IMG/VR virus record: IMGVR_UViG_3300020394_000267
Coordinates: 27,070-91,069 of that record
Reading direction: 5' to 3' (one strand)
DNA: 64,000 nucleotides
Source: a virus
Shown one piece after another: positions 17,357 to 59,726 of the stretch. The notes below the pieces were generated by a model. It was not told the origin of the DNA, did no database searches, and saw only the letters and a program-made list of their open reading frames with translations. Positions within the stretch are counted from its first letter, which is position 1; the number at the start of each line of letters is the position of its first letter. Position numbers and translations under genes: made by a program.

Positions 17357-17655
17357 TGCAGAAGAGAATAGTTACAGCGTGGTTGATATTTTTGGGGATA
17401 GTCATGTTGCCTATTTTACCACTTATACCATACTCTAATTGCTGGTATTACTCATTCAAGCGATATATACTAGAAGGATTTAAAGGCAAAATTATTCCAG
17501 TTGCCAGTAGGAGGTGGAGAGGATACCATTGTGTTTATCAAGACGCGGAAGGACAGTTGTGGGAATATACAATGAAGAAAATGCCAAGACAAATGCCTTG
17601 GTGGAGAATGTTTATTTACAATGGAGTAGAAAGGAGATATCGTGGGAAGATATGA
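17356..17655 (+). CDS. Hypothetical membrane protein
   Basis: N-terminal TM helix; TAATG coupling. Confidence 0.55.
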   Translation: MQKRIVTAWLIFLGIVMLPILPLIPYSNCWYYSFKRYILEGFKGKIIPVASRRWRGYHCVYQDAEGQLWEYTMKKMPRQMPWWRMFIYNGVERRYRGKI

Positions 17656-18236
17656 ACTATTTAGATTGGTTAGAAAAGAAAGTTTTTGATGGTAGGGTAG
17701 AAAATCAATCTGTATTAGAACTTGGTGCTTTGAATGATAGGATAACTAATGTCATTCGTAGATGTAATCCAAAGTCAATATACACAGTAGACCCAGACCC
17801 TACTGGTAAACCAGATTTTATAGGGACTGCTAATGATTTTTATTCTGGTGCAACAGAACCATATGATGTTGTAGTGTGCATGGGATTATTATATCATTTG
17901 CATAGTCCTTGGCATTTAGTAGAATTAATTATTAATCATTCTCGACCAAAGATATTAATACTGGAAACTGCTAACGCTATCAATCATGTGAAGGGGTGGT
18001 CAATTAACCCAGAAGAGCATAATGCATTAGCTAATGCTTACGCGGATAGAGAAATAAAACACCCTATGCAGATAAACAGTAGTGTTACTAGAGATAATTG
18101 GATTGAGGGTATAGAAACAACACCGATGAAATTACAACAACATTGGATTTATCATCTGATTCCTTTTGAACAAGATGATTTTTTCGTAAAGGCAAAACAA
18201 AACATGTGGATGGGGGTATTTCAATGGGAAGGATAG
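17652..18236 (+). CDS. Class I SAM-dependent methyltransferase
   Basis: SVLELGA, YDVVVCMGLLYHLHSP, LILET. Confidence 0.8.
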   Translation: MNYLDWLEKKVFDGRVENQSVLELGALNDRITNVIRRCNPKSIYTVDPDPTGKPDFIGTANDFYSGATEPYDVVVCMGLLYHLHSPWHLVELIINHSRPKILILETANAINHVKGWSINPEEHNALANAYADREIKHPMQINSSVTRDNWIEGIETTPMKLQQHWIYHLIPFEQDDFFVKAKQNMWMGVFQWEG

Positions 18237-18912: not shown

Positions 18913-20243
18913 TAGGATTATTATTTTCAGCACTCGCAGTATCGGCAGTCGCCGCTTACTTCTCGATTGTTGGATTGATGGCAATTTTTAGTGGACTACC
19001 GCAGTCCATACTTGCCATGGGTGTGGTGTTGGAGATTGCTAAACTAGTAACTGCCTCTTGGGTGTATCAGTATTGGAAGAAAACCTCGTTGCTGATGCGA
19101 AGTTACATGGTGTCTGCCGTGATTATATTATCAGTCATTACATCCATAGGTATATTTGGATTCCTATCTAAGGCACACCTAGACCAATCCGCATCTACAG
19201 GTGACGCGGTAGCACAGGTGGAAAGAATACAAGACCTTATACAACGAGAGAACCTAAGAATCACCACAGCAGAAGACCAGATAACCAGAATAGAATCTGG
19301 TGGTAGTCTGGATGTGTCAGAGAGTATCAAACAACAGGAAGAGATACGAGATACAGCATGGGACAGAATACAAGATGATGTACAATATGCAGAAAACCAG
19401 ATTGAAAAGATACGAGAAGGATTAGAGTCAGATTTAAGTAAGAAACAGTCAGAGTTAGATGCCCTTGACGATATAGTAAAGTCATACACAGACCAAGGAA
19501 CCACAGGTGGTGTATTCAGTAGAGAAGATAATGTAGCGAAGGGTATAGAGATAAGAGAGTCACAGAAAACAGAGAGAGACAGGATTGCTCTGGAGATGGG
19601 TGAACTGAGAGGATACGCGGAGACCCAGATTGCTGGGTATCGTAACCAAATAGGTGAGTACAGGGCTTCTGTACAGGATACCATTGATGGTGCTAACAGA
19701 GAGATAAACAGATTACGAGAACAGGGTGCTGATGACCAAGCATCCAGAGATGAACAAATTGACACTATACAAGAAAGAATTGATAGTGCATATGCAAAGA
19801 TTGATGAGTACAATGTAGAATTGTTCGATAAACAATCTATTGTAAGGGACATAGAAAAAGAAGTTGGCCCGATTAAATATGTTGCCCAGTTGCTCTATGG
19901 TAACAGCGGTGCTGGTGCGGTAGATAATGCCGTCACACTTCTTATTTTATTACTGGTGTTTGTATTTGACCCATTGGCGATTGTGTTAGTACTTGCCGCC
20001 AACCTTAGTTGGAAGGAAAGGCAAGGAGAACTCATAACACCAATGACAGTTGATGAAACAGTAGTCGAAGAGCAAATTATACCAGATGAAGAACCAGCTG
20101 GAATGCCTACCGATGAATTACCAGAGATGGATGATTGGGTTAGGGATAAGTATGGTACTAGTTCTGGAATGGACAACCTTTCTGATAACGATAAAAAGAA
20201 GTTGGAATGGTTGATTGATAAGAAACGCAATAACACGGAGTAA
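18900..20243 (+). CDS. Membrane-anchored long coiled-coil protein
   Basis: Three N-terminal TM helices, ~230-aa coiled coil, EVGPIKYVA...VFDPLAIVL TM segment. Confidence 0.75.
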   Translation: MGHLIGLLFSALAVSAVAAYFSIVGLMAIFSGLPQSILAMGVVLEIAKLVTASWVYQYWKKTSLLMRSYMVSAVIILSVITSIGIFGFLSKAHLDQSASTGDAVAQVERIQDLIQRENLRITTAEDQITRIESGGSLDVSESIKQQEEIRDTAWDRIQDDVQYAENQIEKIREGLESDLSKKQSELDALDDIVKSYTDQGTTGGVFSREDNVAKGIEIRESQKTERDRIALEMGELRGYAETQIAGYRNQIGEYRASVQDTIDGANREINRLREQGADDQASRDEQIDTIQERIDSAYAKIDEYNVELFDKQSIVRDIEKEVGPIKYVAQLLYGNSGAGAVDNAVTLLILLLVFVFDPLAIVLVLAANLSWKERQGELITPMTVDETVVEEQIIPDEEPAGMPTDELPEMDDWVRDKYGTSSGMDNLSDNDKKKLEWLIDKKRNNTE

Positions 20244-20244
20244 A

Positions 20245-21837
20245 GTGAAAAATATAATGATGGTTGCATTGGCGATGTTAAGTCTCGGCGCCTATGCAGA
20301 AATAGAAGAGATTACAGTGGTAGGTGCCAAAATATATAATGGATACGCTGACCCAGTATACGACAATAACCTTTTAGAAAGTATAGATTACACAAAAAGA
20401 TATGTCGCTGGTGGACTAGGTGGATTTCATGGTTTACAATTAGGTGGCACTGATACAAAGCATACCGCAGTATACAAAAATGGTATGCCTGTCAATGACC
20501 CCAGTTCTGGGTGGTACGATTTTGGTACAGACTTAGTAGCACATCAAAACATAAAAGTTGTAACTGGCCCTAACAGTGTCAAATTTGGTAGTGGTTCTAT
20601 GGCTGGCGTAGTCTTAATTGAGGATAACTTTGAAAGAAATCTTACAGTTGAGGGTGCGAAAGACCAAAGGTCAATAGTTGCTAGTTATGAGTGGTATCCA
20701 TCAACTCAAGAAGTTGGAGTACAAGTTGCTCACTACAAGGGTTCTAATGGTTCAGTCATGACTGATAACACCGAAGAAGATTGGTATGAAAATACGACAG
20801 TCAAATTTGGATATGGAAATGAGGATGTAAGGGTAAACCTTGAACATGTAAACTATTGGTATGATTATGATGCATGTTGGATGATGATGCCACCTAGTGA
20901 GTGGGAAGAGTGGGATTATTGTAATACGCGAGGAGAGAAAAATACCGCTACTTTAAGAACACAATATCTTACACTAGGGTATACAGAGAATGAGGTGTAT
21001 CATAATACTGGATATGAAATACAATCCAATAGAACTTATGGTGATTTCACTGTATATAAAGATTATGGTCATGAGGTAGGAGTCACATGGGATAACGAAC
21101 AGTATGAGAATAAAATTAGGAATTCTTATTCTGCTTATTACCGATGGTCAAATGACTTCATTGGGATTGGATATAAGTTTCTTGAGGGAACTGGCGCATC
21201 TGCTGAACAACATATTGTTAGAATTGGTATGGAGTGGGAAGACGCGAGATTTTCAATCGCAAATAGTTACAGACTGCCCACTTTATATGAGCAGAGAGGT
21301 GATGGATGGGTGATAGCAAATCCATCTCTACAACCAGAAGAGGGTGTCGGCACAGAATTTGGATACAAGGATGTGTCCATTTACTACTATGAATTTGAGG
21401 AAGGTATCGATTTTGACTATAATAGGTATCAATATGTGAATTCTGGTGCATATTCATCACACGGAATTAGATATCAAGACCAATTTCTGCTTGACAATGG
21501 GTCTGTTTTCGTGTATACTGAGTACATAAAAACAGATAAGATTAGAGTACCTAAATACAAAACTAAAGTAAGTTACTGGACATCTGGTTCATTTGCTGGT
21601 ATCCAATGGGATACCGCTTTAGAGTATCTAGGTGAATTTGAGAAGGGGTTCGATTTTGATGGACGAGTTATTGATGATGTTAACACTGTCAATTTTAAGT
21701 TTGGTGTTTATCTTGAACCATCTCTTTATATTATGATATCCATAGATGATTTGATGGATAACCAATTTGAGGTGTTACCAGATTATGCTGCTGCCGGAAG
21801 AACAGTACGAATCAGTTTCGACAAAATACTATTTTGA
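20245..21837 (+). CDS. TonB-dependent outer-membrane receptor (BtuB-like, compact)
   Basis: Signal peptide (AYA), TonB box EEITVVG, plug VYKNGMPVND..GPNSVKFGSGSMAGVV, YRLPTLYE, NPSLQPEEG, GRTVRISF, C-terminal F. Confidence 0.88.
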   Translation: MKNIMMVALAMLSLGAYAEIEEITVVGAKIYNGYADPVYDNNLLESIDYTKRYVAGGLGGFHGLQLGGTDTKHTAVYKNGMPVNDPSSGWYDFGTDLVAHQNIKVVTGPNSVKFGSGSMAGVVLIEDNFERNLTVEGAKDQRSIVASYEWYPSTQEVGVQVAHYKGSNGSVMTDNTEEDWYENTTVKFGYGNEDVRVNLEHVNYWYDYDACWMMMPPSEWEEWDYCNTRGEKNTATLRTQYLTLGYTENEVYHNTGYEIQSNRTYGDFTVYKDYGHEVGVTWDNEQYENKIRNSYSAYYRWSNDFIGIGYKFLEGTGASAEQHIVRIGMEWEDARFSIANSYRLPTLYEQRGDGWVIANPSLQPEEGVGTEFGYKDVSIYYYEFEEGIDFDYNRYQYVNSGAYSSHGIRYQDQFLLDNGSVFVYTEYIKTDKIRVPKYKTKVSYWTSGSFAGIQWDTALEYLGEFEKGFDFDGRVIDDVNTVNFKFGVYLEPSLYIMISIDDLMDNQFEVLPDYAAAGRTVRISFDKILF

Positions 21838-29757: not shown

Positions 29758-29821
29758 GCACTTTCCGCCATGCGTGGTGGCAGTGGCTGTGAAAATAATT
29801 CGTCTTTTTTGAAGAAAACGC

Positions 29822-29850
29822 TTGACAACTGCTGATCTAATGTGTATAAT
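29822..29850 (+). promoter_or_regulatory. Consensus sigma70 promoter TTGACA-N17-TATAAT
   Basis: Exact consensus. Confidence 0.85.
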
Positions 29851-29885
29851 AGGGTGTCGCCTTTAAGAAGAGATATGGCTGCTGC

Positions 29886-29898
29886 TAAGTGATTGATA
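29886..29898 (-). promoter_or_regulatory. IHF binding site TATCAATCACTTA
   Basis: Exact WATCAANNNNTTR match on the minus strand between two promoters. Confidence 0.65.
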
Positions 29899-29927
29899 TA
29901 TAAGGGAAATAAAAGATAAAATAATAC

Positions 29928-29956
29928 TTGACAACTGGTCTCATATGTGAGATCAT
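29928..29956 (+). promoter_or_regulatory. Early promoter TTGACA-N17-GATCAT
   Basis: Same design as 7691, 25948 and 31876. Confidence 0.75.
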
Positions 29957-29962
29957 TATACC

Positions 29963-30400
29963 ATACTGAGAGATGAGGAGATTATATAGTGTTGTGACAA
30001 TAATTTAAACCCCAGTTAAACCGCACCATCTCACCGTGGTTGAGGTTCAAGGAAGAGTGCTATGGGGTCGGAAATGAATCACGGTGCCGAGTCGCAAAGG
30101 TGGCATGACCACGCTCCGATGAGGTAATGACAGGCAGGGCTGGCTGCCATGAACAAGGTGGAGAGACAACTACTAAAGGAGAGTCCCCAGTAGTGGCAAT
30201 GCACAAAGCAGTACCATGAAAAGGACAGGGCGGATGTCAAAGGGTGAGACCCGGCCGCTAACAGGGTTGTGCCTCAATACACACGCGCTCCCCCACGGTT
30301 AGGGGAGCATCACCCAGCAGCAGAGGGGTCAGGCGGGCCTATGCTTTGGGATCGAGGTGGTCGCCCTTACAAGTGCATCTGGCATCCCCCCATATGCATT
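29963..30400 (+). ncRNA. Putative large structured non-coding RNA (family unassigned; ends approximate)
   Basis: GC-rich, no credible ORF, downstream of tandem promoters; helices ACCCCA/TGGGGT, GGCAG/CTGCC, ACTACT/AGTAGT, GGGT/ACCC, GCTCCCC/GGGGAGC. Confidence 0.55.
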
Positions 30401-30462: not shown

Positions 30463-30900
30463 ATGGCAGATATAATTTTTGATGTAGACGGCACTCTTAT
30501 GGATATTACTCATAGGAGGCATTTCGTTGCACAGCGTCCCAAGGACTTTGATTCGTTTCGGAGTCATACTGAATTCGATACCAGAAAGGAAGATATCTTT
30601 GCCATTGCGGATGCGTTACAGTCACAGGGGCATCGTATTCTTATATCTACTGGTAGGAATAAGTCTCAAAGGGATATTACCATTCAACAGATAAGGGATG
30701 GCGGTATAGACTTTGAGCAGATATACATGCGTTCTGATAGTGACTATACACCAGATGATGAGTTAAAGTCACGATTCTTAGACCGTATGATAGATGATGG
30801 TTACAATCCTACTATGGCATTTGATGACCGTCAAAGGGTTGTGGACATGTTTCGTTCACGAGGTTTAACCGTCTTCCAAGTAGCGGAAGGCAATTTTTAA
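30463..30900 (+). CDS. HAD phosphatase (PseT/polynucleotide kinase 3'-phosphatase domain)
   Basis: FDVDGTL, STGR, IYMR, AFDDRQRVVDMFR. Confidence 0.88.
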   Translation: MADIIFDVDGTLMDITHRRHFVAQRPKDFDSFRSHTEFDTRKEDIFAIADALQSQGHRILISTGRNKSQRDITIQQIRDGGIDFEQIYMRSDSDYTPDDELKSRFLDRMIDDGYNPTMAFDDRQRVVDMFRSRGLTVFQVAEGNF

Positions 30901-33233: not shown

Positions 33234-33490
33234 TTCGATATAAACAAACTCGCACTCAAAACATTATTGATTTGGATGGCCCAGATGGTAATGCTTTTAA
33301 CCTGTTGGCAATTGCAAGTAAACTGCTACGCCAACATGAGAACTTCAACCTTGACGATAGGTCACAGTCGTTGATTCTCGCGGAGATGAAGTCGGATGAC
33401 TACACTCATTTGGTAAAGACATTCAATCAGTACTTTGGTAGCATCTTTATTCTGGAAACTACCAACGAGGAATTGTTGGAGTCGTTATAA
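33230..33490 (+). CDS. Conserved hypothetical protein
   Basis: IDLDGPDGNAF.L...EMKSDDY.HL motif. Confidence 0.7.
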   Translation: MIRYKQTRTQNIIDLDGPDGNAFNLLAIASKLLRQHENFNLDDRSQSLILAEMKSDDYTHLVKTFNQYFGSIFILETTNEELLESL

Positions 33491-33816
33491 TGGGTATGCT
33501 GAATATGGGCGGTAGTCTGAGATATGACTACTCTGGTCGTAAGCGTAAGGCGTATAAGAAGAACAATCCGCCCAAGCGTAAGACTACATTTGAGTCTAAA
33601 CCCTTGCGAGTGCCTCATGACCGTCTTGAAGAGATGAATGAGCACAGGCGTAAGTATCCATCACTTAATTCTTTTGCCCCGACAAGTGGCACTAAGGATG
33701 ATAACTGGATACGCGAGAAGCAAGAAATTTCATCTGGTTACACGGTTGCACCCGCCTACAATAAAGGTGCATATCAAGTAATCGGTAAATCCAATATAAA
33801 AGATATTGGAAAATAA
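33490..33816 (+). CDS. Conserved T4-like hypothetical protein
   Basis: YTVAPAYNKGAYQVI motif. Confidence 0.7.
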   Translation: MGMLNMGGSLRYDYSGRKRKAYKKNNPPKRKTTFESKPLRVPHDRLEEMNEHRRKYPSLNSFAPTSGTKDDNWIREKQEISSGYTVAPAYNKGAYQVIGKSNIKDIGK

Positions 33817-33829
33817 TTGAAAAAAACGC

Positions 33830-33858
33830 TTGACATTTGCAAAAAAGATCAGTATAAT
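33830..33858 (+). promoter_or_regulatory. Consensus sigma70 promoter, followed by late promoter TATAAATA (33871-33878)
   Basis: TTGACA-N17-TATAAT. Confidence 0.85.
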
Positions 33859-33883
33859 GGTTGAAAGTTGTATAAATAAACAT

Positions 33884-33953
33884 GCGGTGGACGGTATTCG
33901 TACAATCCGTTTCCAACGGACAAGGTTAGGTGAAACTCCTAGACGCCGCTCCA
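33884..33953 (+). tRNA. Non-canonical tRNA-Gly (TCC)
   Basis: Acceptor GCGGTG/CGCCGC, discriminator T, encoded CCA; anticodon arm TCCG-TTTCCAA-CGGA; T arm TTAGG-TGAAACT-CCTAG; mini D arm GTA-TTCG-TAC. Confidence 0.75.
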
Positions 33954-33961
33954 ATTTTACA

Positions 33962-34206
33962 GTTGTAGTCCTAGGCAAAGACTCCATCCTGTCACAAGTT
34001 AAACTGCCTCGACTGAACATTGATAGCCATGTAATGATGCATCAAAACAGTAGGTCGTTAAACCATAAGGAGCCCTGAGCAGTGGCGCAAGGTAACACAC
34101 AGACCGAAAAAGGCTCAGTCCATCGACTACATGAGGGCAGTGATGGCCTCGCATAACACAGATGGACAAAGAGAGCTGGGCATCTCTCTTCATCCTAAAC
34201 TGCCCA
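33962..34206 (+). ncRNA. Putative structured ncRNA downstream of the tRNA (unassigned)
   Basis: Helices TGTAGTC/GACTACA, ACTG/CAGT, TTGAT/ATCAA, CTGAGC/GCTCAG, GTCCATC/GATGGAC, AAGAGAG/CTCTCTT, GGGCAGT/ACTGCCC. Confidence 0.6.
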
Positions 34207-34226
34207 CTACTAGAAGGACAACAACA

Positions 34227-34388
34227 ATGAAGTACTTGAGTATATTAGTTGTTTGTATTATGATTACTGCATGTAGCGGAAGAATAAATTTAATCGCTGA
34301 ATTACCAAAAGACCAAGACCTAGATGTAACAATTAAAACATCCAAGTCTGGTGGTGTGCATAAATCTAATACACCAACAGCAGAATGA
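34227..34388 (+). CDS. Small lipoprotein
   Basis: MKYLSILVVCIMITA-C lipobox; AAGGA RBS. Confidence 0.65.
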   Translation: MKYLSILVVCIMITACSGRINLIAELPKDQDLDVTIKTSKSGGVHKSNTPTAE

Positions 34389-34862: not shown

Positions 34863-35033
34863 TTACACGCTCCACTTAGAACCGCGATAGATTCCAGATG
34901 TAGCAGGAACCCATTGCTCTCTTAGAGTGGGATTATGTTTGACGCCACGATATAACATCTCTTGAGACTCGATTGTCTTATGAGTTATAGTTCCGTTATA
35001 TTTAACGCCTCTGTAGTTTAGCTGTGTAGTCAT
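34863..35033 (-). CDS. DUF4278-type small protein ('downstream peptide')
   Basis: Three YRG(V/S)K repeats; AGGAGG RBS; ATG at 35033. Confidence 0.85.
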   Translation of the reverse strand: MTTQLNYRGVKYNGTITHKTIESQEMLYRGVKHNPTLREQWVPATSGIYRGSKWSV

Positions 35034-35057
35034 TTTGACACCTCCTGTATTAAGAGA

Positions 35058-35119
35058 TGCGTTCCTTCGGCGGAATTGCCTACTTCCGTCCACCGCTACA
35101 TTTAGGGTGGATGAACGAA
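35058..35119 (-). promoter_or_regulatory. Glutamine riboswitch (glnA / downstream-peptide class)
   Basis: Minus strand reads TTCGTTCA-TCCACC..GGTGGA-CGGAAGTAGGC..GCCGAAGGAACGCA, the glnA-motif core, directly 5' of a DUF4278 gene. Confidence 0.88.
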
Positions 35120-41079: not shown

Positions 41080-41811
41080 ATGAAGAAAATAATTGACAGA
41101 TTGTTAAGACCTACCCCTATCAGTCTACTGGTAGGGCAGACTATAGCCCAAATTTCAGTCATACCCATGTTCTTCATTGGTACACCTGTAACTTGGGCGA
41201 TTTGTGCATTTATGTACTTTGGAATCATGACTTTTGGTATCACAATGGGATATCATCGATACTGGAGTCACTATAGTTTCAAATGTTCTAAATGGTTAGA
41301 ATATGTTATGATGTTTTTTGCCCACATTATGATGGTTGGCCCAGCACTAGCATGGGTTGCTCAACACAGGGAACACCATGACCACGCGGATACAGATAAA
41401 GACCCACACTCACCAGAGTATCAAGGATTCATTCGTTGTTACTACTCACAAGTGATGTCTTTACCTAAAATGCAATATGTAAAGAAAGATTTATTGAGGG
41501 ATGAATTATGCAAAACACAGCATCGTTATTACTGGCATTTCTTGCTACTATGGCTATCTGTTCTTATTCTATTTGGTGGTATTGAAGCAATCATATATGC
41601 ATGGTTAGCTCCAGCAGGATTTGCCAAATTAATAGGGTCAATAGTTTTTGTTCACTCACATAGAGGGGGAAAACCTCGTAGTGATTACTGGTTGGGAATG
41701 GTTACATTCGGTGAAGGGTTTCACGCGAAACATCATGAAGAACCTTGGAGTTGGGACTTTCACCGTTGGGATATAGGTGGAAAAATTATTCGGTTATTAA
41801 AACATGCTTAG
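41080..41811 (+). CDS. Membrane fatty acid desaturase (delta-9/DesC-like)
   Basis: His boxes HRYWSH, HREHH, GEGFHAKHH; DPHSP. Confidence 0.9.
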   Translation: MKKIIDRLLRPTPISLLVGQTIAQISVIPMFFIGTPVTWAICAFMYFGIMTFGITMGYHRYWSHYSFKCSKWLEYVMMFFAHIMMVGPALAWVAQHREHHDHADTDKDPHSPEYQGFIRCYYSQVMSLPKMQYVKKDLLRDELCKTQHRYYWHFLLLWLSVLILFGGIEAIIYAWLAPAGFAKLIGSIVFVHSHRGGKPRSDYWLGMVTFGEGFHAKHHEEPWSWDFHRWDIGGKIIRLLKHA

Positions 41812-42514
41812 AAAAAGAGATTTACCTACAGTTGCAAAACTAGACATAGAATTTGATATTGATAAAATAAAACATTACATAGACTCATTAGACCAAGGTG
41901 GATGGGGTGATGTATATGAATCAAATGAGGGAATTACTAATTTTGCTAATGCAGACTTTATAAGAGGTCTGGAATATAATGATTTTAAAGAATACCCATG
42001 TCAATACCTTAGACCAGAATACTGGGAAGAAATGAAGAATCCTAGTTTAGACTTGGGCAAGAGTAAAACAGAAGTTTATAGAAACAAACATGAGAGAACC
42101 AATAAACTCTCTCCAGTTGGTAATGAACACATGTGGGATTATGACATGCCTCATTATAGAGGAAGTTATATTCAAAGACACATCACAGAAAACTTCAAGG
42201 CGGAGTCTTGTAGGACAAGAATTCACTGGTTACCAAAAGGTAAACAGATACAACCACATATTGATTATGATGCTTCTTATGCGGTTAGAATTGTCGTACC
42301 TATATCGGGTACAGACAATGTTATAAATGCCTTCTGGCCGAAAAACCAGAGGGAAGAATATAACTTGAAAGCAGATGGTTCAGCTTATTTTATAAACATC
42401 GGTTACAAACATGCCGTTGAACATAATGGAAGTGAAGATAGAATTGCTTTGTTATTTACATTGAAGAGCCAAGAAGATGTGGAAGATTACGCCATACAAA
42501 AAGAAGTACAGTAA
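41804..42514 (+). CDS. 2OG-Fe(II) oxygenase (Asp/Asn beta-hydroxylase-like)
   Basis: PHIDY...KHAVEHNGSEDRI. Confidence 0.75.
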   Translation: MLRKRDLPTVAKLDIEFDIDKIKHYIDSLDQGGWGDVYESNEGITNFANADFIRGLEYNDFKEYPCQYLRPEYWEEMKNPSLDLGKSKTEVYRNKHERTNKLSPVGNEHMWDYDMPHYRGSYIQRHITENFKAESCRTRIHWLPKGKQIQPHIDYDASYAVRIVVPISGTDNVINAFWPKNQREEYNLKADGSAYFINIGYKHAVEHNGSEDRIALLFTLKSQEDVEDYAIQKEVQ

Positions 42515-43055
42515 ACAATGGGAACAATTTAGAGAACAAGCTCTTAATGAAGGCAATGATTCTCTAATAAAAGAAAAGTTAGACCCAGAAAACCTAGATG
42601 GTATCCTTCATCTTCTATGGGAAGATGGGGAACTCGCCTCTTGTCAAGCTGCTGAGGTTGACCATTATACAGATAACCCCACTGCAATCAGAATGTGTAG
42701 ATTGCATACACTGAAACAATTCAGAAGAACAACATATGGGATGCCTCTCACCAAAGTTCAAATTGATTGGGCGAGAGACATGGGATATGAACATATTTGG
42801 GCGTCAGTCGATGTTAACCGTGTTGGTTATAACGCGATATGGCAGAACAAAAGAAAATCACCAAACTATCAAGATTGGAAAGAAGATTTTGATACTTGGT
42901 GGAAAGATATAATATGGAACAAGAAATATTTGTTTAAGGTTGACCCTGTAGCAGAGTATTATCAGTACATCTATGTTATTAATTTAGTGAACAAGGAATT
43001 CATTCCTAAAAAGAATGTTGTTCCTTTTAATTCGGAGATACGAAATGCACATTGA
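42477..43055 (+). CDS. GNAT-like acyltransferase
   Basis: RLHTLKQFRR...QIDWARDMGYEHIWASV. Confidence 0.55.
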   Translation: MWKITPYKKKYSKQWEQFREQALNEGNDSLIKEKLDPENLDGILHLLWEDGELASCQAAEVDHYTDNPTAIRMCRLHTLKQFRRTTYGMPLTKVQIDWARDMGYEHIWASVDVNRVGYNAIWQNKRKSPNYQDWKEDFDTWWKDIIWNKKYLFKVDPVAEYYQYIYVINLVNKEFIPKKNVVPFNSEIRNAH

Positions 43056-43638
43056 ACATGAAACAGTCGCAAGATGGTTTAATTATGTTAGAGAAAAATC
43101 GAACCCTCGATTTACAGAATGTTTCTGGGATACACAATTAAAATCCAAAGCAGAAATTATAGACAACATACCACAACACTTTCACGGTAACTATTACCTT
43201 TTTGGTGGATGGTTTGGGGTTCTTGCTCATTTACTTAATGACAATATAGTTGCAGATGAAATATACACGGTTGATATTGACCCAATGTGTAAAGAGGTCG
43301 GAGATGTATATTTTCTCAATGCAAACATAACATATGTCACAGATGATATGTGTAACTTTGAGTACCCAAAAAAACCAGATGTTGTTATAAACACCAGCAC
43401 CGAACATTTACACCAGTATGACTATCAAAAATGGTGGGACAACATTCCAGAAGGAACCTTTTATGCAGTACAGGGGAATGACCTTGATATACCAGAACAT
43501 GTTCGTTCATTTAAATCACTCGCGTACTTCTTGGAATGGAATAGATGCACAAACACATGTTACGAGTCAGCAATAGAATTGCCTGGCCCTAACAACTCAA
43601 CTTATACTAGATTTACAGCAATGGGGTACAAAGCATGA
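43045..43638 (+). CDS. Class I SAM-dependent methyltransferase-like protein
   Basis: FGGWFGVL, VDIDP, VINTSTEH. Confidence 0.7.
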   Translation: MHIEHETVARWFNYVREKSNPRFTECFWDTQLKSKAEIIDNIPQHFHGNYYLFGGWFGVLAHLLNDNIVADEIYTVDIDPMCKEVGDVYFLNANITYVTDDMCNFEYPKKPDVVINTSTEHLHQYDYQKWWDNIPEGTFYAVQGNDLDIPEHVRSFKSLAYFLEWNRCTNTCYESAIELPGPNNSTYTRFTAMGYKA

Positions 43639-44408
43639 ATGTAGCAATACTTGGTTATGGATTTTGTGGGAAGGCTACTGAGCGTATGCTTAGAACATGT
43701 AAAGAAATAAAACGAATTCAAATTCAAGACCCAAAATATGATAAAAAAATATCACCAGACGAATGGGACTTGATTGACTATGCTTTTGTTTGTGTTCCAA
43801 CACCACTAATACAAAACTACAGTGTAATGGATCATTTTTACAATGGAAATGAGTTTGATATGTCTATTGTCCATAAAGCAATAGAAGATGTACCAGACAG
43901 AACAAGAATAGTTATCCGTAGCACAGTTGGCCCAGATAATTTAGAAAAAGGTTGGATTCACTGGCCTGAATTCTTGCGAGAAAATAATTGGGAAGAGGAT
44001 GCAGATGATAAATCAATTCCTTTTATATTAGGTGTAGACCACGATGATAAAGATGCAATTAATGATTTAGTTTGGTTAATGAAAGACCGAGATGGGGTAC
44101 TTGTTAATCCAAAAGTGGCTGCAACTTATAAGTTGTCTAGGAACGCGATGTTAGCTGCCAAAGTAACCATGGCAAACTACATTCACAAAGTATGCGAAGA
44201 ACAAAATATATCATATGGGTCTGTAGCAGGGTTATTAAAAGACCATGCAAATTTAGGAACATCTCACTGGGATGTGCCAGGCCCCGATGGTCAATATGGT
44301 TTTGGTGGTTCTTGTTTTCCAAAAGACACCACACACTTTGCTTCAATGTTAGGTAATCAAAGTAACATCTTTACTCATGTCTTGAGGTGCAATGAACGAA
44401 GTCGCTAA
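43635..44408 (+). CDS. UDP-glucose/GDP-mannose dehydrogenase family protein (short form)
   Basis: GYGFCG, FVCVPTP, IRSTV, PEFLRE, GFGGSCFPKD. Confidence 0.88.
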   Translation: MNVAILGYGFCGKATERMLRTCKEIKRIQIQDPKYDKKISPDEWDLIDYAFVCVPTPLIQNYSVMDHFYNGNEFDMSIVHKAIEDVPDRTRIVIRSTVGPDNLEKGWIHWPEFLRENNWEEDADDKSIPFILGVDHDDKDAINDLVWLMKDRDGVLVNPKVAATYKLSRNAMLAAKVTMANYIHKVCEEQNISYGSVAGLLKDHANLGTSHWDVPGPDGQYGFGGSCFPKDTTHFASMLGNQSNIFTHVLRCNERSR

Positions 44409-45669
44409 ATACCTAGATGATATTACAAGAAGAAACAACGCAATCGGTAAGGGATTCTGTGTTCTAAAGTGGTGGCATTTAGAAATGCATTTGGGTACAG
44501 GTAATTATCATTCCTGTTTTCATTGTCCACAACAAAATCTTAAACTTGATGAAGATATGCATAATACTCTTCACAAGATGCAACAAAGAAAAACTATGTT
44601 GGAAGGTGGGAGACCAGATGAATGTTCTTATTGTTGGAAGGCAGAAGATGTTGGTGCGGTAAGTCCTAGAACAACCCTTACTCCAATATACACGCAGATG
44701 GAAGAGGATATCATTGAAACCACTGCTAACTTAAAGTGGGATGAATATGTGTATCCAAAGTATTTGGAGATGAGTTTTTCAAATACATGTCAAATGAAAT
44801 GTTCCTATTGCGCTCCGTCTTTGAGTTCTACCTTGTTACAAGAAATTAAAAAGGAAGGTGCGTATCCTCTCGCAGACCCAGAGAATCGTGGACAATATGA
44901 ATTAAATGGAACTGAGGAACTTTATAAGGATGATGATAACCCCTTGTTGGATAAGTTTTGGGATTGGTTTAGTGAGGCAAGAAAACATCTTGATACATTG
45001 AGAATAACAGGCGGAGAACCCTTGTTACATAAAAGTACATTTGATATGATGGATAGATTGCGTGGAGAGTCTATCAACTTTCATATAAACAGTAATTTAT
45101 CAGTATCGAATAGAAGAGTAACAGAAGCATGTAACTTGTTACCAGCGAAGTCTAAAGTGTATGCTAGTGTAGATACATTTGGAAAACAGGCAGAGTGGAT
45201 TAGACACGGACTTAACTGGGATTTATTTGACCAGAATGTTCTTACTGTTATCAATCACAAAATACCATTGAGTTTTATGACAACATTCTGTTTATTAAGT
45301 ATACCTAGATTCAAAGACTTTTTATATTATATCGTACAACTAAAAGATATAGGGGATGTATTGATTGATACACCGTTTATGACAAACCCGCCACATTTGT
45401 CATGTCTTATAATGGATGATGATATGAGAGAAACATTAGAAGATAGTTATCAGTTTATGTCATATAACAGTGAGTTTAACCACGCGGAAGTCGTAAAATT
45501 TGAAAGACTATTGAAATGGGTGGATGCAAATAGGTTCACTGGAGAACGCCTAAATAGTCACAGAAAGGATTTTAAAACATTTGTCGATGAACATGATAGA
45601 CGCAGAGGCACAAATTGGCATGATGCGTTCCCAGAGTTGACATATTTTTATGAGTTATGTGATGCCTGA
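44392..45669 (+). CDS. Radical SAM protein with N-terminal twitch domain (1 of 7)
   Basis: FCVLKW..SCFHC..ECSYCW; CQMKCSYC; TGGEP. Confidence 0.9.
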   Translation: MNEVAKYLDDITRRNNAIGKGFCVLKWWHLEMHLGTGNYHSCFHCPQQNLKLDEDMHNTLHKMQQRKTMLEGGRPDECSYCWKAEDVGAVSPRTTLTPIYTQMEEDIIETTANLKWDEYVYPKYLEMSFSNTCQMKCSYCAPSLSSTLLQEIKKEGAYPLADPENRGQYELNGTEELYKDDDNPLLDKFWDWFSEARKHLDTLRITGGEPLLHKSTFDMMDRLRGESINFHINSNLSVSNRRVTEACNLLPAKSKVYASVDTFGKQAEWIRHGLNWDLFDQNVLTVINHKIPLSFMTTFCLLSIPRFKDFLYYIVQLKDIGDVLIDTPFMTNPPHLSCLIMDDDMRETLEDSYQFMSYNSEFNHAEVVKFERLLKWVDANRFTGERLNSHRKDFKTFVDEHDRRRGTNWHDAFPELTYFYELCDA

Positions 45670-47050
45670 AAACAAACCCAATGAATACTGGATAGAACAG
45701 TTAAAAGAAAAACGAGAAAAGATTAATCAAATTAGTCCTTCTTTTTGTTCTGCTAAATGGTTACAGACTACTCTCTATTTGCAGAATGGGTATAATCACT
45801 CTTGTCACCATCCCTCGCCTCATAAAATACCAGTAAAAGAAGTATTAGAGAATCCAGCAGCTCTTCATAATAGTAATTATAAGAAGCAACAAAGAATCAA
45901 AATGATTAATGGTGAAAGACCCAAAGAGTGTGATTATTGCTGGAGAATAGAAGACCAAGGTAAGGGACACTTTTCTGACCGTCATTATAAAACTGCTGAT
46001 TGGTGGTCATGGGATAAGGTTGATGTTATTGCAACTGATAACCCCACAAAAGATGTCTACCCAACATACCTAGAGGTGTCGTTTTCAAACGCATGTAATT
46101 TCGCGTGTGCATATTGTTCACCAGAAATAAGTTCTGAGTGGATGAAAGATATAGAAAAAAATGGTGACTACCCTGTAGAGTTTGGTTCTGGTAATCTTGA
46201 CTATTTGAGACAAGTAGAAAAGTTTCCATATAAACACTCTGACCCCAATCCATATGTAGATGCATTTTGGAAATGGTTCCCAGAGGCGCTTCCTCATTTG
46301 AGAGTGTTTCGTATTACTGGTGGTGAACCCACTATGAGTAAAGATGTATGGAAGGTATTGGATTACATATATGAAAATGCTCAACCAGAATTGTCTATTG
46401 CAATCAATAGTAATCTTGGTACAACACCAAAATTGATACAGAGACTTGTTGACTCATGTAACAAATTAAGAGACAAAGTTAAACAAATTGAGATATATAC
46501 AAGTGCGGAGGCAATTGGAGAACAGGCAGAATATATAAGAGATGGAATGGATTATGATTATTGGCGTTCTAATGTAGAAAAGGTTTTAACAGAAACAGAC
46601 GCGAATGTAGCAATCATGACTACATTGAACATATTGAGTATGACTACATTTGAAAACTTCATTGAAGACATAATGCAGTTAAGAATCAAGTATAATAAAG
46701 ATTTAGCGAATAATAGAATACCGTTAAGTATAAACTATTTGAGATTCCCCCCTCATTTACAATGTACTCTATTGGATAGAAATACCAGAATATCCTATGC
46801 ATCTGATTATGAACTAATAGCAAAGGTTTGGTTGAAGTACAATTCACCAGACAAGTTCGCAAGAATTTATTTGGAAGAGTATGACCAGATACAAAGGTTC
46901 TGTGAATATCTTAGGCAAGAACACAAAGGTGCTGAAAAATATAGAGCAGACTTTGTAAATTATATAAAAGCCTACGATATCAGAAGGTCGAAAAACTTTA
47001 GCAAAACTTTTCCAGAATATAAACATTTATTGGAGTGGTGGGATGCCTAA
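45650..47050 (+). CDS. Radical SAM protein with N-terminal twitch domain (2 of 7)
   Basis: FCSAKW..SCHHP..ECDYCW; CNFACAYC; TGGEP. Confidence 0.9.
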   Translation: MSYVMPENKPNEYWIEQLKEKREKINQISPSFCSAKWLQTTLYLQNGYNHSCHHPSPHKIPVKEVLENPAALHNSNYKKQQRIKMINGERPKECDYCWRIEDQGKGHFSDRHYKTADWWSWDKVDVIATDNPTKDVYPTYLEVSFSNACNFACAYCSPEISSEWMKDIEKNGDYPVEFGSGNLDYLRQVEKFPYKHSDPNPYVDAFWKWFPEALPHLRVFRITGGEPTMSKDVWKVLDYIYENAQPELSIAINSNLGTTPKLIQRLVDSCNKLRDKVKQIEIYTSAEAIGEQAEYIRDGMDYDYWRSNVEKVLTETDANVAIMTTLNILSMTTFENFIEDIMQLRIKYNKDLANNRIPLSINYLRFPPHLQCTLLDRNTRISYASDYELIAKVWLKYNSPDKFARIYLEEYDQIQRFCEYLRQEHKGAEKYRADFVNYIKAYDIRRSKNFSKTFPEYKHLLEWWDA

Positions 47051-47270
47051 AAAATACATTCATGTAAACATGCACAAAATTCGTGCTAATAAAAAACATG
47101 GGACAAACGAACCTGTTCTTACAGTAAAAGAGGGAAGAAAAAATACTTATGGACATAGTGTAAAGATACATGGCCCGAGTGAAGTAATATATGGTGGCAA
47201 TGATAAACCATTGTTACCCTGTGGGGCAAGAGTTGTTATAATGACAGAAGCGGAGATTGAAATTGAATAA
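47043..47270 (+). CDS. Conserved small phage protein
   Basis: IHVN.HKIRAN.K...KPLLPCGARV motif. Confidence 0.7.
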   Translation: MPKKYIHVNMHKIRANKKHGTNEPVLTVKEGRKNTYGHSVKIHGPSEVIYGGNDKPLLPCGARVVIMTEAEIEIE

Positions 47271-48765
47271 AGAATATGATTTGATAAAGTATCGGAAAGA
47301 CATTCTTGATACTAAGTCGAAGAGTTTTTGTGGTGCGAAATGGTACAACGCTACCACATGGTTAGGTAGTGGTACTACTGCTAGTTGTCATCACCCCCCA
47401 GCACATAAGATTCCGTTACACGAGATTGCAGCTGACCCATCTGCTATTCACAATACGCAACATAAGAAAGCAATGCGTAAGATGATGCAACGCGGAGAAA
47501 GACCGCGTGAGTGTGAGTATTGTTGGAAAGTTGAAGACATGGGCAATGATGCAGTTAGTGACAGAGTTTTTAAATCAATCATATACACCAATGAAGATTT
47601 AAAGAAGGCACACGAAGCAGACTTCAATGATAACACACTATTAAAAACATTTGAGATTGCATTTGACCGAACATGTAACCTTGCTTGTTCTTATTGTAAC
47701 TCAAGTTTCTCTACTACATGGGCAAAGGATATAAAGAAACATGGCCCTTATCAAAACATGGTATCAGATGGTGCGGCCGCCTTCCAACATGACGGTGCGT
47801 GGGCAGACCCATATGGTAAGAAAGAAGAGAATCCATATGTAACTGCTTTCTGGGATTGGTGGGAAGATGGACTATCAGAAAGTCTTGAAGAGTTGAGAGT
47901 TACAGGTGGAGAACCTTTAATGTCTGACCAAGTATGGAAGTTGTTTGATTGGTTTGAGAATAATCCATCTGACATGCGATTTGCAGTAAACTCTAATCTC
48001 ATTGCGAAGGAAAGTATTGTTGATAGATTGATTGAAAAATCAAAAGGGGTTAAGAAGTTTCATCTTTATACTAGTTGCGAGGCAACAGGAAAACAAGCAG
48101 AGTATATAAGAGATGGACTTGATTACGAACTATGGACTAATAATATAACGCGATTTATCAAAGAAGGCAACTATGAGGGCATCAATATAATGATGACTAT
48201 TAATAGTTTGTGTCTGTTTAGTATCACAGACTTCTTAGATGATGTATTCAAACTAAAAGAATTGACAAAAAGTAAGACACCTGTATTTAGTGTTAACTTA
48301 TTGCGATTCCCTAGTTTCCAAAGTCCTCTTGCACTACCAGACCATATTAAAGATTATCTTAGAGAGAATCTATCTAATTGGTATGAAGAAAATAAAGACA
48401 GACAATACTGGCACGATTTTGAAAAAGCAAGTATTGAAAGATTGATAGACTATCTAGTAATTGTTGATGCACCACATAGACGAACCAGTGACAAGATGAC
48501 TTTGTGGAGAGATTTTAAAACCTTCTATGGTCAATATGATGAAAGAAGGGATAAAAGTATTTCTGTGTTTCCAGAAATTCTTACTGATTGGGTAGACACC
48601 CTTCCAGATACAGAAACAAAACCTATTACAGTTATGCCAAGTGGTGACAGTACAGAACAGTACGCGGATGACCCCGACTTGAAAAAGATTGCTGAAGAAG
48701 AAGGTTGGGTATTGAAACCAGACAATAAAAACATCGACAAACCATTAGGAGATTACGACAAATGA
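47257..48765 (+). CDS. Radical SAM protein with N-terminal twitch domain (3 of 7)
   Basis: FCGAKW..SCHHP..ECEYCW; CNLACSYC; TGGEP. Confidence 0.9.
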   Translation: MKLNKEYDLIKYRKDILDTKSKSFCGAKWYNATTWLGSGTTASCHHPPAHKIPLHEIAADPSAIHNTQHKKAMRKMMQRGERPRECEYCWKVEDMGNDAVSDRVFKSIIYTNEDLKKAHEADFNDNTLLKTFEIAFDRTCNLACSYCNSSFSTTWAKDIKKHGPYQNMVSDGAAAFQHDGAWADPYGKKEENPYVTAFWDWWEDGLSESLEELRVTGGEPLMSDQVWKLFDWFENNPSDMRFAVNSNLIAKESIVDRLIEKSKGVKKFHLYTSCEATGKQAEYIRDGLDYELWTNNITRFIKEGNYEGINIMMTINSLCLFSITDFLDDVFKLKELTKSKTPVFSVNLLRFPSFQSPLALPDHIKDYLRENLSNWYEENKDRQYWHDFEKASIERLIDYLVIVDAPHRRTSDKMTLWRDFKTFYGQYDERRDKSISVFPEILTDWVDTLPDTETKPITVMPSGDSTEQYADDPDLKKIAEEEGWVLKPDNKNIDKPLGDYDK

Positions 48766-49640
48766 AGATATTAATGACAGGTTCCTCTGGGTTCATAGGG
48801 TCTCACCTTACACCCTACCTAAGAGAACATGAAATTCATCACTTACAAAGTGATTTAAGACATCACGGATTGGTTAGAACAGAGGTTAGAGATTTTCAAC
48901 CAGACATGATTGTACACCTTGGAGCGAGAACAGAAGTTGAACAAAGTTTCTATGAACAAATAACATTCAGTGAAATTAACTATGTTGGTAGTGTAAACCT
49001 TATTGAAGTCTCAAGAGAGATTCCTAATTTTAAGAACTTTGTTTTTGCGAGTACAATGGAAGTATATGGCCCGCAACCAAAACATACAGTATGTGACCAT
49101 CTTACTACTCCATATCCAAATGCACCATATGCCGTTGCTAAATATGGTGTTGAAAAATATCTGGAGTATGCTGGTAGGTCTTATAGTCTTCCTTATACTA
49201 TTATTAGACAGACCAATTGTTATGGTAGAAAAGACAACGACTTCTTTGTTACTGAACAGATTATAACTCAGATGTTAGACAATCCAGATGAAATACATTT
49301 GGGATATGCTGACCCCTATCGTAACTTTATATACATTGATGATATGTTAGATGCGTGGACTGCCATTATTAATAATCCAGAAAAATGTAAGGAGAAGATA
49401 TTTACCCTAGGCCCAGACAACCCGATTCAAATAAGAGACTATGTTGATATCATTGCTCAAAAAATAGGTTGGGATGGAAAGGTATATTGGAATACAAAAC
49501 CAGAAAGGCCAGGCGAAATATATTGGTTGAATAGTAGTGGAAAGTTATTAGAAGATACACTTGGTTGGATACCAAAAGTGACTCTATCAGAAGGATTAGA
49601 TAGAACAATTTCTTGGTGGAGAAATGTCAGTAAAAGATAG
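48762..49640 (+). CDS. NAD-dependent nucleotide-sugar epimerase/dehydratase
   Basis: TGSSGFIG, ASTMEVYG, YAVAK (YxxxK). Confidence 0.9.
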   Translation: MKILMTGSSGFIGSHLTPYLREHEIHHLQSDLRHHGLVRTEVRDFQPDMIVHLGARTEVEQSFYEQITFSEINYVGSVNLIEVSREIPNFKNFVFASTMEVYGPQPKHTVCDHLTTPYPNAPYAVAKYGVEKYLEYAGRSYSLPYTIIRQTNCYGRKDNDFFVTEQIITQMLDNPDEIHLGYADPYRNFIYIDDMLDAWTAIINNPEKCKEKIFTLGPDNPIQIRDYVDIIAQKIGWDGKVYWNTKPERPGEIYWLNSSGKLLEDTLGWIPKVTLSEGLDRTISWWRNVSKR

Positions 49641-50931
49641 ACCCTACCTTTGCACCGCACCTTGGACACATACCTATGTTTCCCCACAAGGAGAACGAAG
49701 GTTGTGTTGTGCTAGCAGAGAAGAGGCATCTTTTCAAAAACAATACTTAGATAGTGGTACTGCGGAAGGTAAATTTAAACCACTATCATTAGAAGAACAC
49801 TGGAATAGTGATTATATGAAAGACATCCGCAAAAGGATGTTAGCAGGAGAAAAATTAAAACAATGTCAAGTATGCAATGACCAAGTTTTGAATCTACATA
49901 CTTATCGTCAATACTTTACAGAGACATTGTTCCCCCACAAAGTAGAAGACATTATAGCGACTACGCGAGAAGACGGACACTATGATAAATTGCCAGTCTC
50001 GTATGATTATCGTATTTCTAATCTATGTAACTTTAAATGTCGGATGTGTGGGGAACAATTGTCTTCTAGTTGGGAAGCAGAGAAGAAGAAACACAATCTT
50101 ATTGATGTGAAACAAGACCCTTGGATGGAACCCACCACCAGAAAGAAAATATCAAACTTTCAAGAAGAGGTCTTAGAAGAAGAATTACAAAAAGCAGTTG
50201 ATAATAAAACCATTGAAGAAATATACTGGGTTGGTGGCGAACCATTGATGTGGGAAAGACACTGGACTATTATGCAACAACTGGTAGACAATGGACACGC
50301 GAAAAATGTTACCATTCGTTATAACACAAATCTAAGTAGAGTAAAATATAAAGATTATAATTTATGGGAGATGTTACCACACTTTAAGAATGTTAATATA
50401 TGTGCTAGTATTGATGGTGCGTATGAGGTGGGCGAATATATCAGAGATGGACTAGTGTGGAGTGAGTGGATAGAAAACTTTAAGTCTGGTATGTTTCTTA
50501 TAGACCAGTTTGGTGATGATGCACTAGTATTCGATGTAACTCTAACAACGCCAGGCTTATTCCATCTTGATAAGTTGATTGATGTTGCCAGTTCTCTTGA
50601 TATAAAGTCATATTTTAAATTTACATACGCATTTGACCCAAGTGTTGTTATGTCACCATTTTGTCTTCCTAAAGATGTGCTTTTACCCCAAGTTGATTCA
50701 TTAATGCAACACATAGATGAACGACTAACATGGAAAACAAAAGTTTATAAAGATTCACTGGTTAATCTAATAAATAGAGAGTCATTTGATGAACAATGGC
50801 CTGACACATATAAAGATGGTTTGAAACGCGGAAAGCAGTTTCAAGAATATCTTGATAATTTAAGAAACTCCAAACTAAAGTTTGTTGATACACTTCACGG
50901 TAACGCCGTGGATTGGTGGAATAGAATATGA
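49624..50931 (+). CDS. Radical SAM protein with N-terminal twitch domain (4 of 7)
   Basis: CTAPW..LCC..QCQVC; CNFKCRMC; GGEP. Confidence 0.9.
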   Translation: MSVKDRPYLCTAPWTHTYVSPQGERRLCCASREEASFQKQYLDSGTAEGKFKPLSLEEHWNSDYMKDIRKRMLAGEKLKQCQVCNDQVLNLHTYRQYFTETLFPHKVEDIIATTREDGHYDKLPVSYDYRISNLCNFKCRMCGEQLSSSWEAEKKKHNLIDVKQDPWMEPTTRKKISNFQEEVLEEELQKAVDNKTIEEIYWVGGEPLMWERHWTIMQQLVDNGHAKNVTIRYNTNLSRVKYKDYNLWEMLPHFKNVNICASIDGAYEVGEYIRDGLVWSEWIENFKSGMFLIDQFGDDALVFDVTLTTPGLFHLDKLIDVASSLDIKSYFKFTYAFDPSVVMSPFCLPKDVLLPQVDSLMQHIDERLTWKTKVYKDSLVNLINRESFDEQWPDTYKDGLKRGKQFQEYLDNLRNSKLKFVDTLHGNAVDWWNRI

Positions 50932-59629: not shown

Positions 59630-59726
59630 ACTTGATGAGATAGAGCAAAAAGAAAAAGAAAAACAAGAAGCTCTTGAAAAGAAACTCAAAAAGATGAGAG
59701 AACGAGACCCATTTATATATGACTAG
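59523..59726 (+). CDS. Small basic protein ending RDPFIYD
   Basis: GGAG/GAGG RBS; KKMRERDPFIY motif; overlaps the 3' end of ugd. Confidence 0.6.
   Translation: MKQRTKKKLHKFMKAGRLTKVIRKVLLEVSEKTDSKLDEIEQKEKEKQEALEKKLKKMRERDPFIYD

Follow-up and report, generated by a model that had tools for sequence, protein, structure and literature searches.

An elbow-altered tRNA-Gly(UCC)-like RNA in a clade of marine T4-like phages and its possible role as a glycine donor for a Mom-family enzyme

Structure and conservation of the tRNA-like RNA

We analyzed a stretch of 64,000 nucleotides (nt), here called the window, which comprises positions 27070-91069 of the 91-kb IMG/VR virus record IMGVR_UViG_3300020394_000267 (G000; ~47% complete). 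The gene content of this record (NrdA/NrdB, ThyX, a T4-type RNase H and PhoH) points to a marine T4-like myovirus, and the DNA of the window weakly matches the Pelagibacter myophage HTVC008M. Between a gene for a protein of 108 amino acids (aa; 33490-33816) and a small lipoprotein gene lies a gap of 410 nt without a credible open reading frame (ORF), and this gap holds the element described here, a 70-nt RNA resembling tRNA-Gly(UCC) (Table 1). Its strand is fixed as plus by the U·G pairs at 5:68 and 49:65, and a scan with the covariance model R1 found one copy per carrier genome.

A reading made earlier from the letters of the window (the sequence-only reading) had described a glycine tRNA with the pairs G1-C72 and C2-G71, U73, the anticodon UCC and an encoded CCA, which direct reading and the alignment bore out; the CCA lies at 33951-33953 and is preceded by U73. 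The deviations listed there, namely the T loop UGAAACU, an A at position 8, a mismatch at 7:66 and a D loop lacking GG, were also found on direct reading. Its D arm stood in part: the stem does have three pairs, but the UUCG loop had to be given up. Drawn as GUA-UUCG-UAC, the arm decays to two pairs and a bulge in one of the sequence variants (the L102 type), whereas all variants fold into the stem A8-U18/C9-G17/G10-C16 with A8 inside it (loop GUAUU in the window), and pair 10-16 covaries; this drawing is therefore preferred.

All four arms of a cloverleaf are present, covariation backs the three inner ones, and the T stem has five pairs. The stack of the acceptor and T stems (7/5) and the 7-nt anticodon loop with U33 and A37 are retained. 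The nucleotides that build the elbow of a canonical tRNA are not: G18G19, the T54-Psi55-C56 sequence, the 8-9 (U8) connector and a normal 4-bp D stem are missing. The T arm keeps U54, A58 and G53-C61 and has G55 A56 where Psi55 C56 would be expected. Across the variants the D loop reads GUAUU or GAAU and the T loop UGARACU; we take UGARA to be a match to the general T-loop pattern, so that with G53-C61, U54 and A58 a T-loop fold is presumably possible.

Copies were sought in IMG/VR by a loop-anchored pattern scan and a scan of the 3' flank, which yielded four further viral contigs, and in metagenomes by a scan anchored just 3' of the CCA, which yielded 17 marine contigs with the element. With the R1 model, a further copy came to light in L165, a distant relative (85 bits); it has diverged far more than the others and is the sixth distinct variant among 23 copies in total. 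The pattern-scan matches L084-L094, L096-L099, L101, L103-L106 and L124-L144 were dismissed as chance matches, and L166-L168, which are canonical tRNA-Arg(ACG), were rejected as copies.

In an alignment of five variants, 95.8% of the cloverleaf cells are paired, compared with 35-44% when the partners are slid by one to three columns. Changes on both sides occur at five pairs (10-16, 24-36, 26-34, 44-58 and 45-57), and none of 500 shuffles reached the observed values. No stem substitution breaks a pair in any of the variants, L165 included. In the L102 type, the G-C pair at 10-16 is replaced by U-A and the 22-38 mismatch of the anticodon arm is repaired; the anticodon loop is fixed apart from an A or G at position 38. 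Within the T arm, pair 50-64 is seen as U-A, A-U or G-C (the last in L165), pair 51-63 as A-U or U-A, and loop position 57 as A or G. RNAalifold recovered the same cloverleaf arms from 13 full transcripts, and each variant folds likewise when taken alone. The acceptor end stands apart: together with NCCA, 0 of its 18 positions changed in the five variants, whereas the remaining stems vary at 11 of their 26 positions, which argues for selection on the acceptor sequence itself. The sole acceptor-strand change is found in L165, where the U·G pair at 5:68 becomes U-A.

Compared with the nearest relative (L002), the genes flanking the element are 87-89% identical, the non-coding stretch 96% and the element itself 100%. 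The covariation, this excess of identity and the occurrence as a single copy together make it very probable that we are dealing with a genuine gene for an RNA derived from tRNA-Gly(UCC), kept by purifying selection, and not with a pseudogene. Taken alone, the single sequence of the window is not distinguishable from chance. Its folding energy is no better than that of shuffled sequence (z-scores of -0.3 to -1.0), as a decaying tRNA pseudogene or a chance cloverleaf would have it, and ARAGORN in its metazoan-mitochondrial mode, which calls mtRNA-Gly(tcc) at exactly 33884-33953, makes 12 calls in the 64-kb window; with 11 other calls, this one was set aside as evidence for the element. However, decay would not leave every stem substitution compensatory, nor an element and promoters conserved in 23 contigs including a distant relative. 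The deviations from a canonical tRNA are fixed in related phages, and a carrier genome that is 91% complete (G004) contains no canonical tRNA-Gly. Pseudogene and chance are thus effectively refuted by the covariation.

Standard tRNA finders pass over this gene. In bacterial mode, ARAGORN found no tRNA in the window and left the element uncalled at thresholds from 100% down to 60%, the lowest of which gave 297 other calls; ARAGORN scores were among the checks suggested in the sequence-only reading. The Rfam tRNA model RF00005 (family threshold 29 bits) gave no match at E<=10, even in a search space of 86 nt. In L102-type genomes, a canonical tRNA-Arg(UCU) located 84 nt upstream scores 71 bits on RF00005 and the element nothing, showing that its oddities are gene-specific. 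Blastn against annotated phage tRNAs revealed no similarity to the element. A transfer-messenger RNA (tmRNA) was not found by ARAGORN either, and the element has G3-C70 (G3·U70 in tmRNA), U73 and a full anticodon arm.

Two further identities were considered and rejected. Faint echoes of pemK, FMN and CRISPR-DR57 models (E 4-8), which might suggest a CRISPR-repeat mimic, reflect only the T-loop-type hairpin GGUGAAAnUCC. A decayed protein gene is contradicted by stops in all six frames and a lack of tblastn relatives. The adjoining tRNA-Arg(UCU) gene (L102 4903-4979, 71 bits; also in L112 and L120) is confined to one sub-lineage and is the sole canonical tRNA in G004; its site, a hot spot of indels, is flanked by the 108-aa anchor gene and the promoter of the cassette.

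Table 1. Coordinates of the tRNA-like RNA and of the features around it (positions in the window)
Feature	Position	Strand	Basis or remarks
Early sigma70-type promoter, extended consensus CGCTTGACA-N17-TATAAT	33827..33858	+	12/12 hexamer positions (33830-33858); in all copies
T4-type late-promoter box TATAAATA	33871..33878	+	5 nt before G1; in all 13 full-length variants
tRNA-Gly(UCC)-like RNA, 70 nt, encoded CCA	33884..33953	+	Covariation; RNAalifold; covariance model R1, 102.9 bits
Acceptor stem, 5' strand GCGGUGG	33884..33890	+	Pairs with 33943-33949 (ACGCCGC); six pairs and a G7·A66 mismatch
D arm, reduced to a 3-bp stem (ACG/CGU) and loop GUAUU; G18G19 and 8-9 connector lacking	33891..33901	+	Minimum-free-energy fold in all variants
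Anticodon arm, 7-nt loop UUUCCAA, anticodon UCC at 33912-33914	33905..33921	+	Covarying pairs 24-36 and 26-34
T arm: stem UUAGG/CCUAG, loop UGAAACU (33931-33937)	33926..33942	+	Pairs 50-64 and 51-63 vary in compensated fashion
AU-rich linker after CCA, probable processing site	33954..33962	+	Most variable stretch of the transcript (AUUUUACAG, GACUUUACGG, AAUUAACAG and others)
Conserved structured RNA domain, ~250 nt, predicted to be co-transcribed	33963..34210	+	96% identical to L002, flanks 87-89%
Small lipoprotein gene, 53 aa, lipobox ITAC	34227..34388	+	Shine-Dalgarno sequence AAGGA at 34214-34218; ORF and signal peptide read

Promoters and the RNA domain downstream

The same order of parts was found in all copies: the early promoter, the TATAAATA box, the tRNA-like RNA, a variable AU-rich linker and a structured domain of ~250 nt. 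Both promoters had been proposed in the sequence-only reading and were recovered (12/12 hexamer match; TATAAATA 5 nt before G1). The extended early promoter occurs twice in 64 kb, with 0 occurrences expected. TATAAATA is not enriched in the window (7 found, 5.65 expected); its distance to G1 is invariably 5 nt, or 4 nt in L165, whereas the sequence between the box and the -10 hexamer drifts. By what we take to be the promoter geometry of T4, a late transcript would start at G1.

The linker resembles the RNase E-type spacers of tRNA operons, so that cleavage probably takes place here. The domain behind it contains helices with compensatory changes (CUGAGC/GCUCAG, GUCCAUC/GAUGGAC, GAGG/CCUC and GCC/GGC), has no ORF, no protein relatives and no Rfam match at E<=10, and is present in a diverged form in L165. 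A T-box-like contact between this domain and the tRNA-like module was considered and rejected, because the two do not covary. Of the 23 copies, 22 are followed by the lipoprotein gene. L165 lacks it and continues directly with a winged helix-turn-helix (wHTH) gene; the lipoprotein gene was therefore rejected as a member of the unit and is regarded as a facultative passenger. Consequently, the conserved unit consists of two RNAs. A scan anchored on the lipoprotein gene brought up no further cassettes.

This arrangement could mean that the tRNA-like fold only serves the structure or processing of a single composite non-coding RNA, with glycine charging incidental or absent. By attracting RNase P, RNase E or RNase Z, the module might set the ends of the 250-nt domain, or both domains might form one ribonucleoprotein, comparable to tmRNA, the bacterial Y RNAs or MALAT1-mascRNA. 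Module and 3' domain indeed occur together in 23 of 23 copies, including L165 without the lipoprotein gene, and neither was found alone; one pair of promoters serves both, and the 3' domain is itself under structural selection. However, processing enzymes need only the shape of the acceptor and T arms, and here the anticodon stem has been kept by three compensatory events and the acceptor is invariant in sequence, beyond its pairing. Moreover, no covariation connects the domains, and conservation is lowest in the linker that separates them. We consider a purely composite RNA unlikely on this balance.

The gene order tRNA-Arg, tRNA-like RNA, 3' domain of the L102 type recalls the order tRNA-Arg, rnaD, rnaC in T4, where the stable RNAs species 2 and 1 (rnaD and rnaC), themselves unexplained, directly follow tRNA-Arg(UCU) in the tRNA region. 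In contrast to this likeness of position, there is no similarity in sequence or to the R1 model (filters off), and the tRNA-like parts of rnaC and rnaD are 3' ends with canonical T loops. No description of a phage RNA such as the one reported here was found in the literature searched.

The other extended early promoter of the window (CGCTTGACA-N17-TATAAT, 29819-29850), together with another promoter-like site, drives a GC-rich stretch of ~440 nt (promoter and stretch within 29819-30400), in which we found neither an ORF nor a tRNA-like module, and which Rfam does not match (best E 0.73). Non-coding RNAs thus follow both of the strongest early promoters of the window.

Glycine identity, T-stem pairs and a candidate partner enzyme

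Glycylation depends on the identity set G1-C72, C2-G71, (G3-C70), U73, C35 and C36 (PMC7826273). All of these nucleotides and the CCA are invariant in the six variants. When the tRNA region of T4 was scanned with R1, tRNA-Gly(UCC) scored best of the eight T4 tRNAs (20.5 bits, E 9e-5), which fits a descent of the element from a phage tRNA-Gly. The T4 tRNA (NC_000866 72291-72364) has the same GCGG...CCGCUCCA acceptor end and the same UUCCAA in its anticodon loop, and the genome around the element is T4-like; unlike the element, it possesses G18G19, a TPsiC loop, a normal D arm and a tight T stem (G-U/U-A/G-C).

The T stem is of interest because the affinity of EF-Tu for the tRNA body depends on the pairs 49-65, 50-64 and 51-63. 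Proteogenic tRNA-Gly has the tight combination G-U, C-G or U-A, G-C, and a tight body is needed for glycine, while the staphylococcal non-proteogenic (NP) tRNA-Gly species carry A-U, U-A, A-U. In the element, pair 49-65 is U·G, pair 50-64 is U-A, A-U or G-C, and pair 51-63 is A-U or U-A; none of the variants has G51-C63. From these pairs, EF-Tu would be expected to bind it weakly. The element shares with the NP1-3 tRNA-Gly of S. aureus (PMC7826273) all glycine identity nucleotides, D and T arms that deviate from the norm and a T stem of the weak EF-Tu type, with identical pairs at 50-64 (U-A) and 51-63 (A-U). The NP species are chromosomal, have a cloverleaf of normal size, feed FmhB, FemA and FemB for peptidoglycan synthesis and are confined to staphylococci (PMC7826273); the element, by contrast, is viral and has a truncated D arm, and no Fem gene is present in G000 and G001. 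Hence the core of the sequence-only reading, a tRNA-Gly derivative that kept its charging signals, lost its elbow and is probably non-ribosomal, gains support from the covariation, the invariant acceptor end and the weak-type T stem.

A working, odd-shaped elongator tRNA-Gly(UCC) would explain some of these data differently. It would supplement the decoding of GGA and GGG, in parallel to the T4 pair of tRNA-Gly(UCC) and tRNA-Arg(UCU), a pair that has its likeness in the genomes with the canonical tRNA-Arg(UCU) neighbor. The 7-nt anticodon loop with U33, A37 and UCC suits a decoder, and so does codon usage in the window, where GGA makes up 30% of the glycine codons and AGA 54% of the arginine codons. 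Since U54, A58 and G53-C61 are kept, the T loop could still fold, and a U of the D loop might pair with A56 in place of G19-C56. Yet such a decoder would have to work without G18G19, Psi55-C56, the U8 connector and a 4-bp D stem, and with T-stem pairs of the weak EF-Tu type, which weighs most for glycine. The tRNA detectors (ARAGORN in bacterial mode, RF00005) remain silent on it while the neighboring tRNA scores 71 bits, and literature searches turned up no bacterial precedent for a decoder of this kind. We therefore judge a role in decoding improbable.

A decoy or sponge, also raised in the sequence-only reading, is very improbable in our view. The RNA would divert a host weapon directed at tRNA-Gly, such as an anticodon nuclease or a TacT/AtaT2-type GNAT toxin acting on Gly-tRNA by acetylation, or it would blind a tRNA-sensing defense. 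A very strong early promoter, and hence predicted strong expression, would serve this end, as would the retention of anticodon loop and acceptor end together with the loss of translation features. T4 counters an anticodon nuclease by tRNA repair, in which its PNKP-type phosphatase takes part, and the window encodes a stand-alone PNKP-type phosphatase (HAD) domain protein (30463-30900; 145 aa, 102 bits), the counterpart of the phosphatase half of T4 polynucleotide kinase. Near this gene, neither a kinase domain nor a T4-type RNA ligase was detected, in a search whose ligase control was itself silent. A glycine-specific nuclease or defense partner was not identified, and the counter-measures known from phages are canonical tRNAs that replace the cleaved ones (PMC10264068).

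The GNAT of the window (42477-43055), which had been named as a possible partner, is not supported in this role: its score on Acetyltransf_1 is 17 bits, its gene is part of a sugar-modification cluster at a distance of 8.5 kb from the element, and it has the fold of ordinary acetyl-CoA N-acetyltransferases such as PaiA, ArsN, EctA and RimI, being neither Mom nor Fem. FemAB (PF02388) and a CCA-adding enzyme are absent from G000 and G001. The wider idea of a glycine donor for a tRNA-dependent transferase gains partial support through a different enzyme: a Mom-family gene (PF25680) was detected at G000:7708-8319, outside the window and 53 kb upstream of the element, with a score of 202 bits (201 in G004, 198 in G001). 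The two carriers without a PF25680 match are fragments that end before the syntenic position.

Mom of phage Mu belongs to the GNATs and uses Gly-tRNAGly as the source of the glycine that it attaches to N6 of adenine in double-stranded DNA, yielding 6-NcmdA (Silva et al. 2026, PMC13219725). Any of the three tRNA-Gly isoacceptors of E. coli can serve it, whereas Gly-tRNAAla cannot; it probably reads the acceptor end, and competition with translation was raised by the authors as a cost of this use of glycine (PMC13219725). The phage protein matches the solved structure of Mu Mom (8BV8) with E 5e-24, and the catalytic residues H58, Y59, S124, D149 and Y159 are conserved once the crystal offset of nine residues is applied. 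Two other positions differ: R111 of Mu is replaced by Lys (K88), and R151 by Ile (I128), with a Lys three residues on. K88 and I128 are invariant in 14 members of a mostly marine subfamily of ~270 aa with 1,729 members. The Mom-family gene (L162 1456-2274, corresponding to G000:7663-8481) overlaps the end of the 204-aa ORF that precedes it and lacks a separate promoter; its product has a C-terminal extension of ~60 aa relative to Mu Mom and is 93-96% identical among carriers, neighboring genes being far more diverged.

Mom and the RNA are both present in 3/3 carriers whose contigs reach the syntenic spot (G000, G001 and G004). In 50 related-phage records that lack the element at the syntenic site, among them genomes estimated to be 99% and 86% complete, no Mom gene was found, and no R1-type RNA except in the fragment G038. 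A scan of IMG/VR anchored on Mom retrieved only near-identical short contigs.

We propose that the element is a private glycyl carrier for the Mom-type enzyme of the phage that escapes EF-Tu. This is the best mechanistic reading of the data, and we put its probability at roughly 45%. The sigma70 promoter would give an early transcript with a leader of ~19 nt, to be removed by RNase P, and late transcription from the TATAAATA box would begin directly at G1. As the first module of the two-RNA transcript, the tRNA-like RNA would be freed at the AU-rich linker after its encoded CCA. Host glycyl-tRNA synthetase (GlyRS) probably charges it with glycine, every nucleotide read by GlyRS being kept, and the weak EF-Tu-type T stem together with the changed elbow contacts probably keeps it out of bulk translation. 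Once charged, the RNA would most likely hand its glycine to the Mom-family enzyme encoded by the phage, as a donor reserved for this use; the Mu prototype of this enzyme places glycine onto N6 of adenine in double-stranded DNA and so protects it from restriction. Mom fits as the partner because the acceptor end that it probably reads is the invariant part of the element, and a private donor would avoid a contest with translation for Gly-tRNA. The lack of a canonical tRNA-Gly in G004, the most complete of the carriers, also counts in favor of the proposal. The system would thus resemble that of Mu in its Mom-family protein and acceptor end, and would share with the staphylococcal NP species the logic of a donor reserved for a GNAT-fold transferase. 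It would differ from Mu, which relies on host tRNA-Gly and encodes none, in having its own non-canonical carrier, and in an enzyme with Lys for R111 and Ile for R151.

Several observations weigh against this proposal. Mu Mom uses host tRNA-Gly (PMC13219725), so that a private tRNA is not needed. Four complete cultured phages that encode Mom (Melnitz, an Edwardsiella phage, a Psychrobacter phage and Pantoea phage Phynn) have neither an R1-type RNA nor, in the 4 kb around Mom, a mini-cloverleaf with glycine identity, so that Mom does not generally require a private tRNA. All carriers belong to one syntenic clade, and their co-occurrence with Mom thus counts as a single evolutionary event and not as a statistical association. 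The genes for Mom and the RNA are 53 kb apart and do not adjoin. In Mu Mom, R111K is badly impaired and R151A is dead (PMC13219725), so that with Lys and Ile at these positions the chemistry or the donor of the phage enzyme may differ, although the residues are invariant in the subfamily. Finally, the model leaves the obligatory co-transcribed 250-nt RNA unexplained. Only tentatively do we extend the private-carrier proposal to this RNA: a marine T4-like clade might make its own mini tRNA-Gly, charged by GlyRS and ignored by EF-Tu, for a Lys111-type Mom that glycylates adenine in phage DNA, with the 250-nt RNA as a dedicated partner, for example in release of the carrier, charging or delivery.

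Transfer RNAs reserved for tasks outside translation are known from very few systems, foremost the cell-wall tRNA-Gly of staphylococci, and the use of Gly-tRNA by Mom for DNA modification was first published in 2026 (PMC13219725). If the extended proposal is true, DNA hypermodification would here have a private tRNA of viral origin for the first time, as part of a two-RNA module. A viral tRNA-Gly of this reduced kind that travels with a Mom-family gene would reveal a way for a phage to avoid a contest with translation for an activated amino acid, would provide a natural minimal substrate for GlyRS and Mom, and would mark a class of genes missed by every standard tRNA finder. Should the link to Mom fail, the element would still be a rare covariation-backed, elbow-altered tRNA in a bacterial virus, fused to a structured RNA.

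Other features of the phage genome

A glutamine riboswitch (RF01739, 60 bits) is located at 35056-35119 on the minus strand, upstream of a small minus-strand ORF (34863-35093). This block is absent between the wHTH gene and a 466-aa gene in some carriers. Further along the window, a long run of genes (43635-62838) encodes at least six radical-SAM enzymes, four of them with SPASM domains, as well as two UDP-glucose/GDP-mannose dehydrogenase-like proteins, an NAD epimerase/dehydratase and a carbamoyltransferase. Directly upstream of it (41080-43055) lie a fatty-acid desaturase-like gene, a hydroxylase-like gene and the weak GNAT. The tailoring cluster around this run is unusually big for a phage. 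In addition, a 540-aa ORF with a TonB-dependent-receptor plug domain was found in this phage genome at 20215-21837, and near it a QueC-like protein (12668-13312) and several methyltransferases (16020-18236) are encoded.

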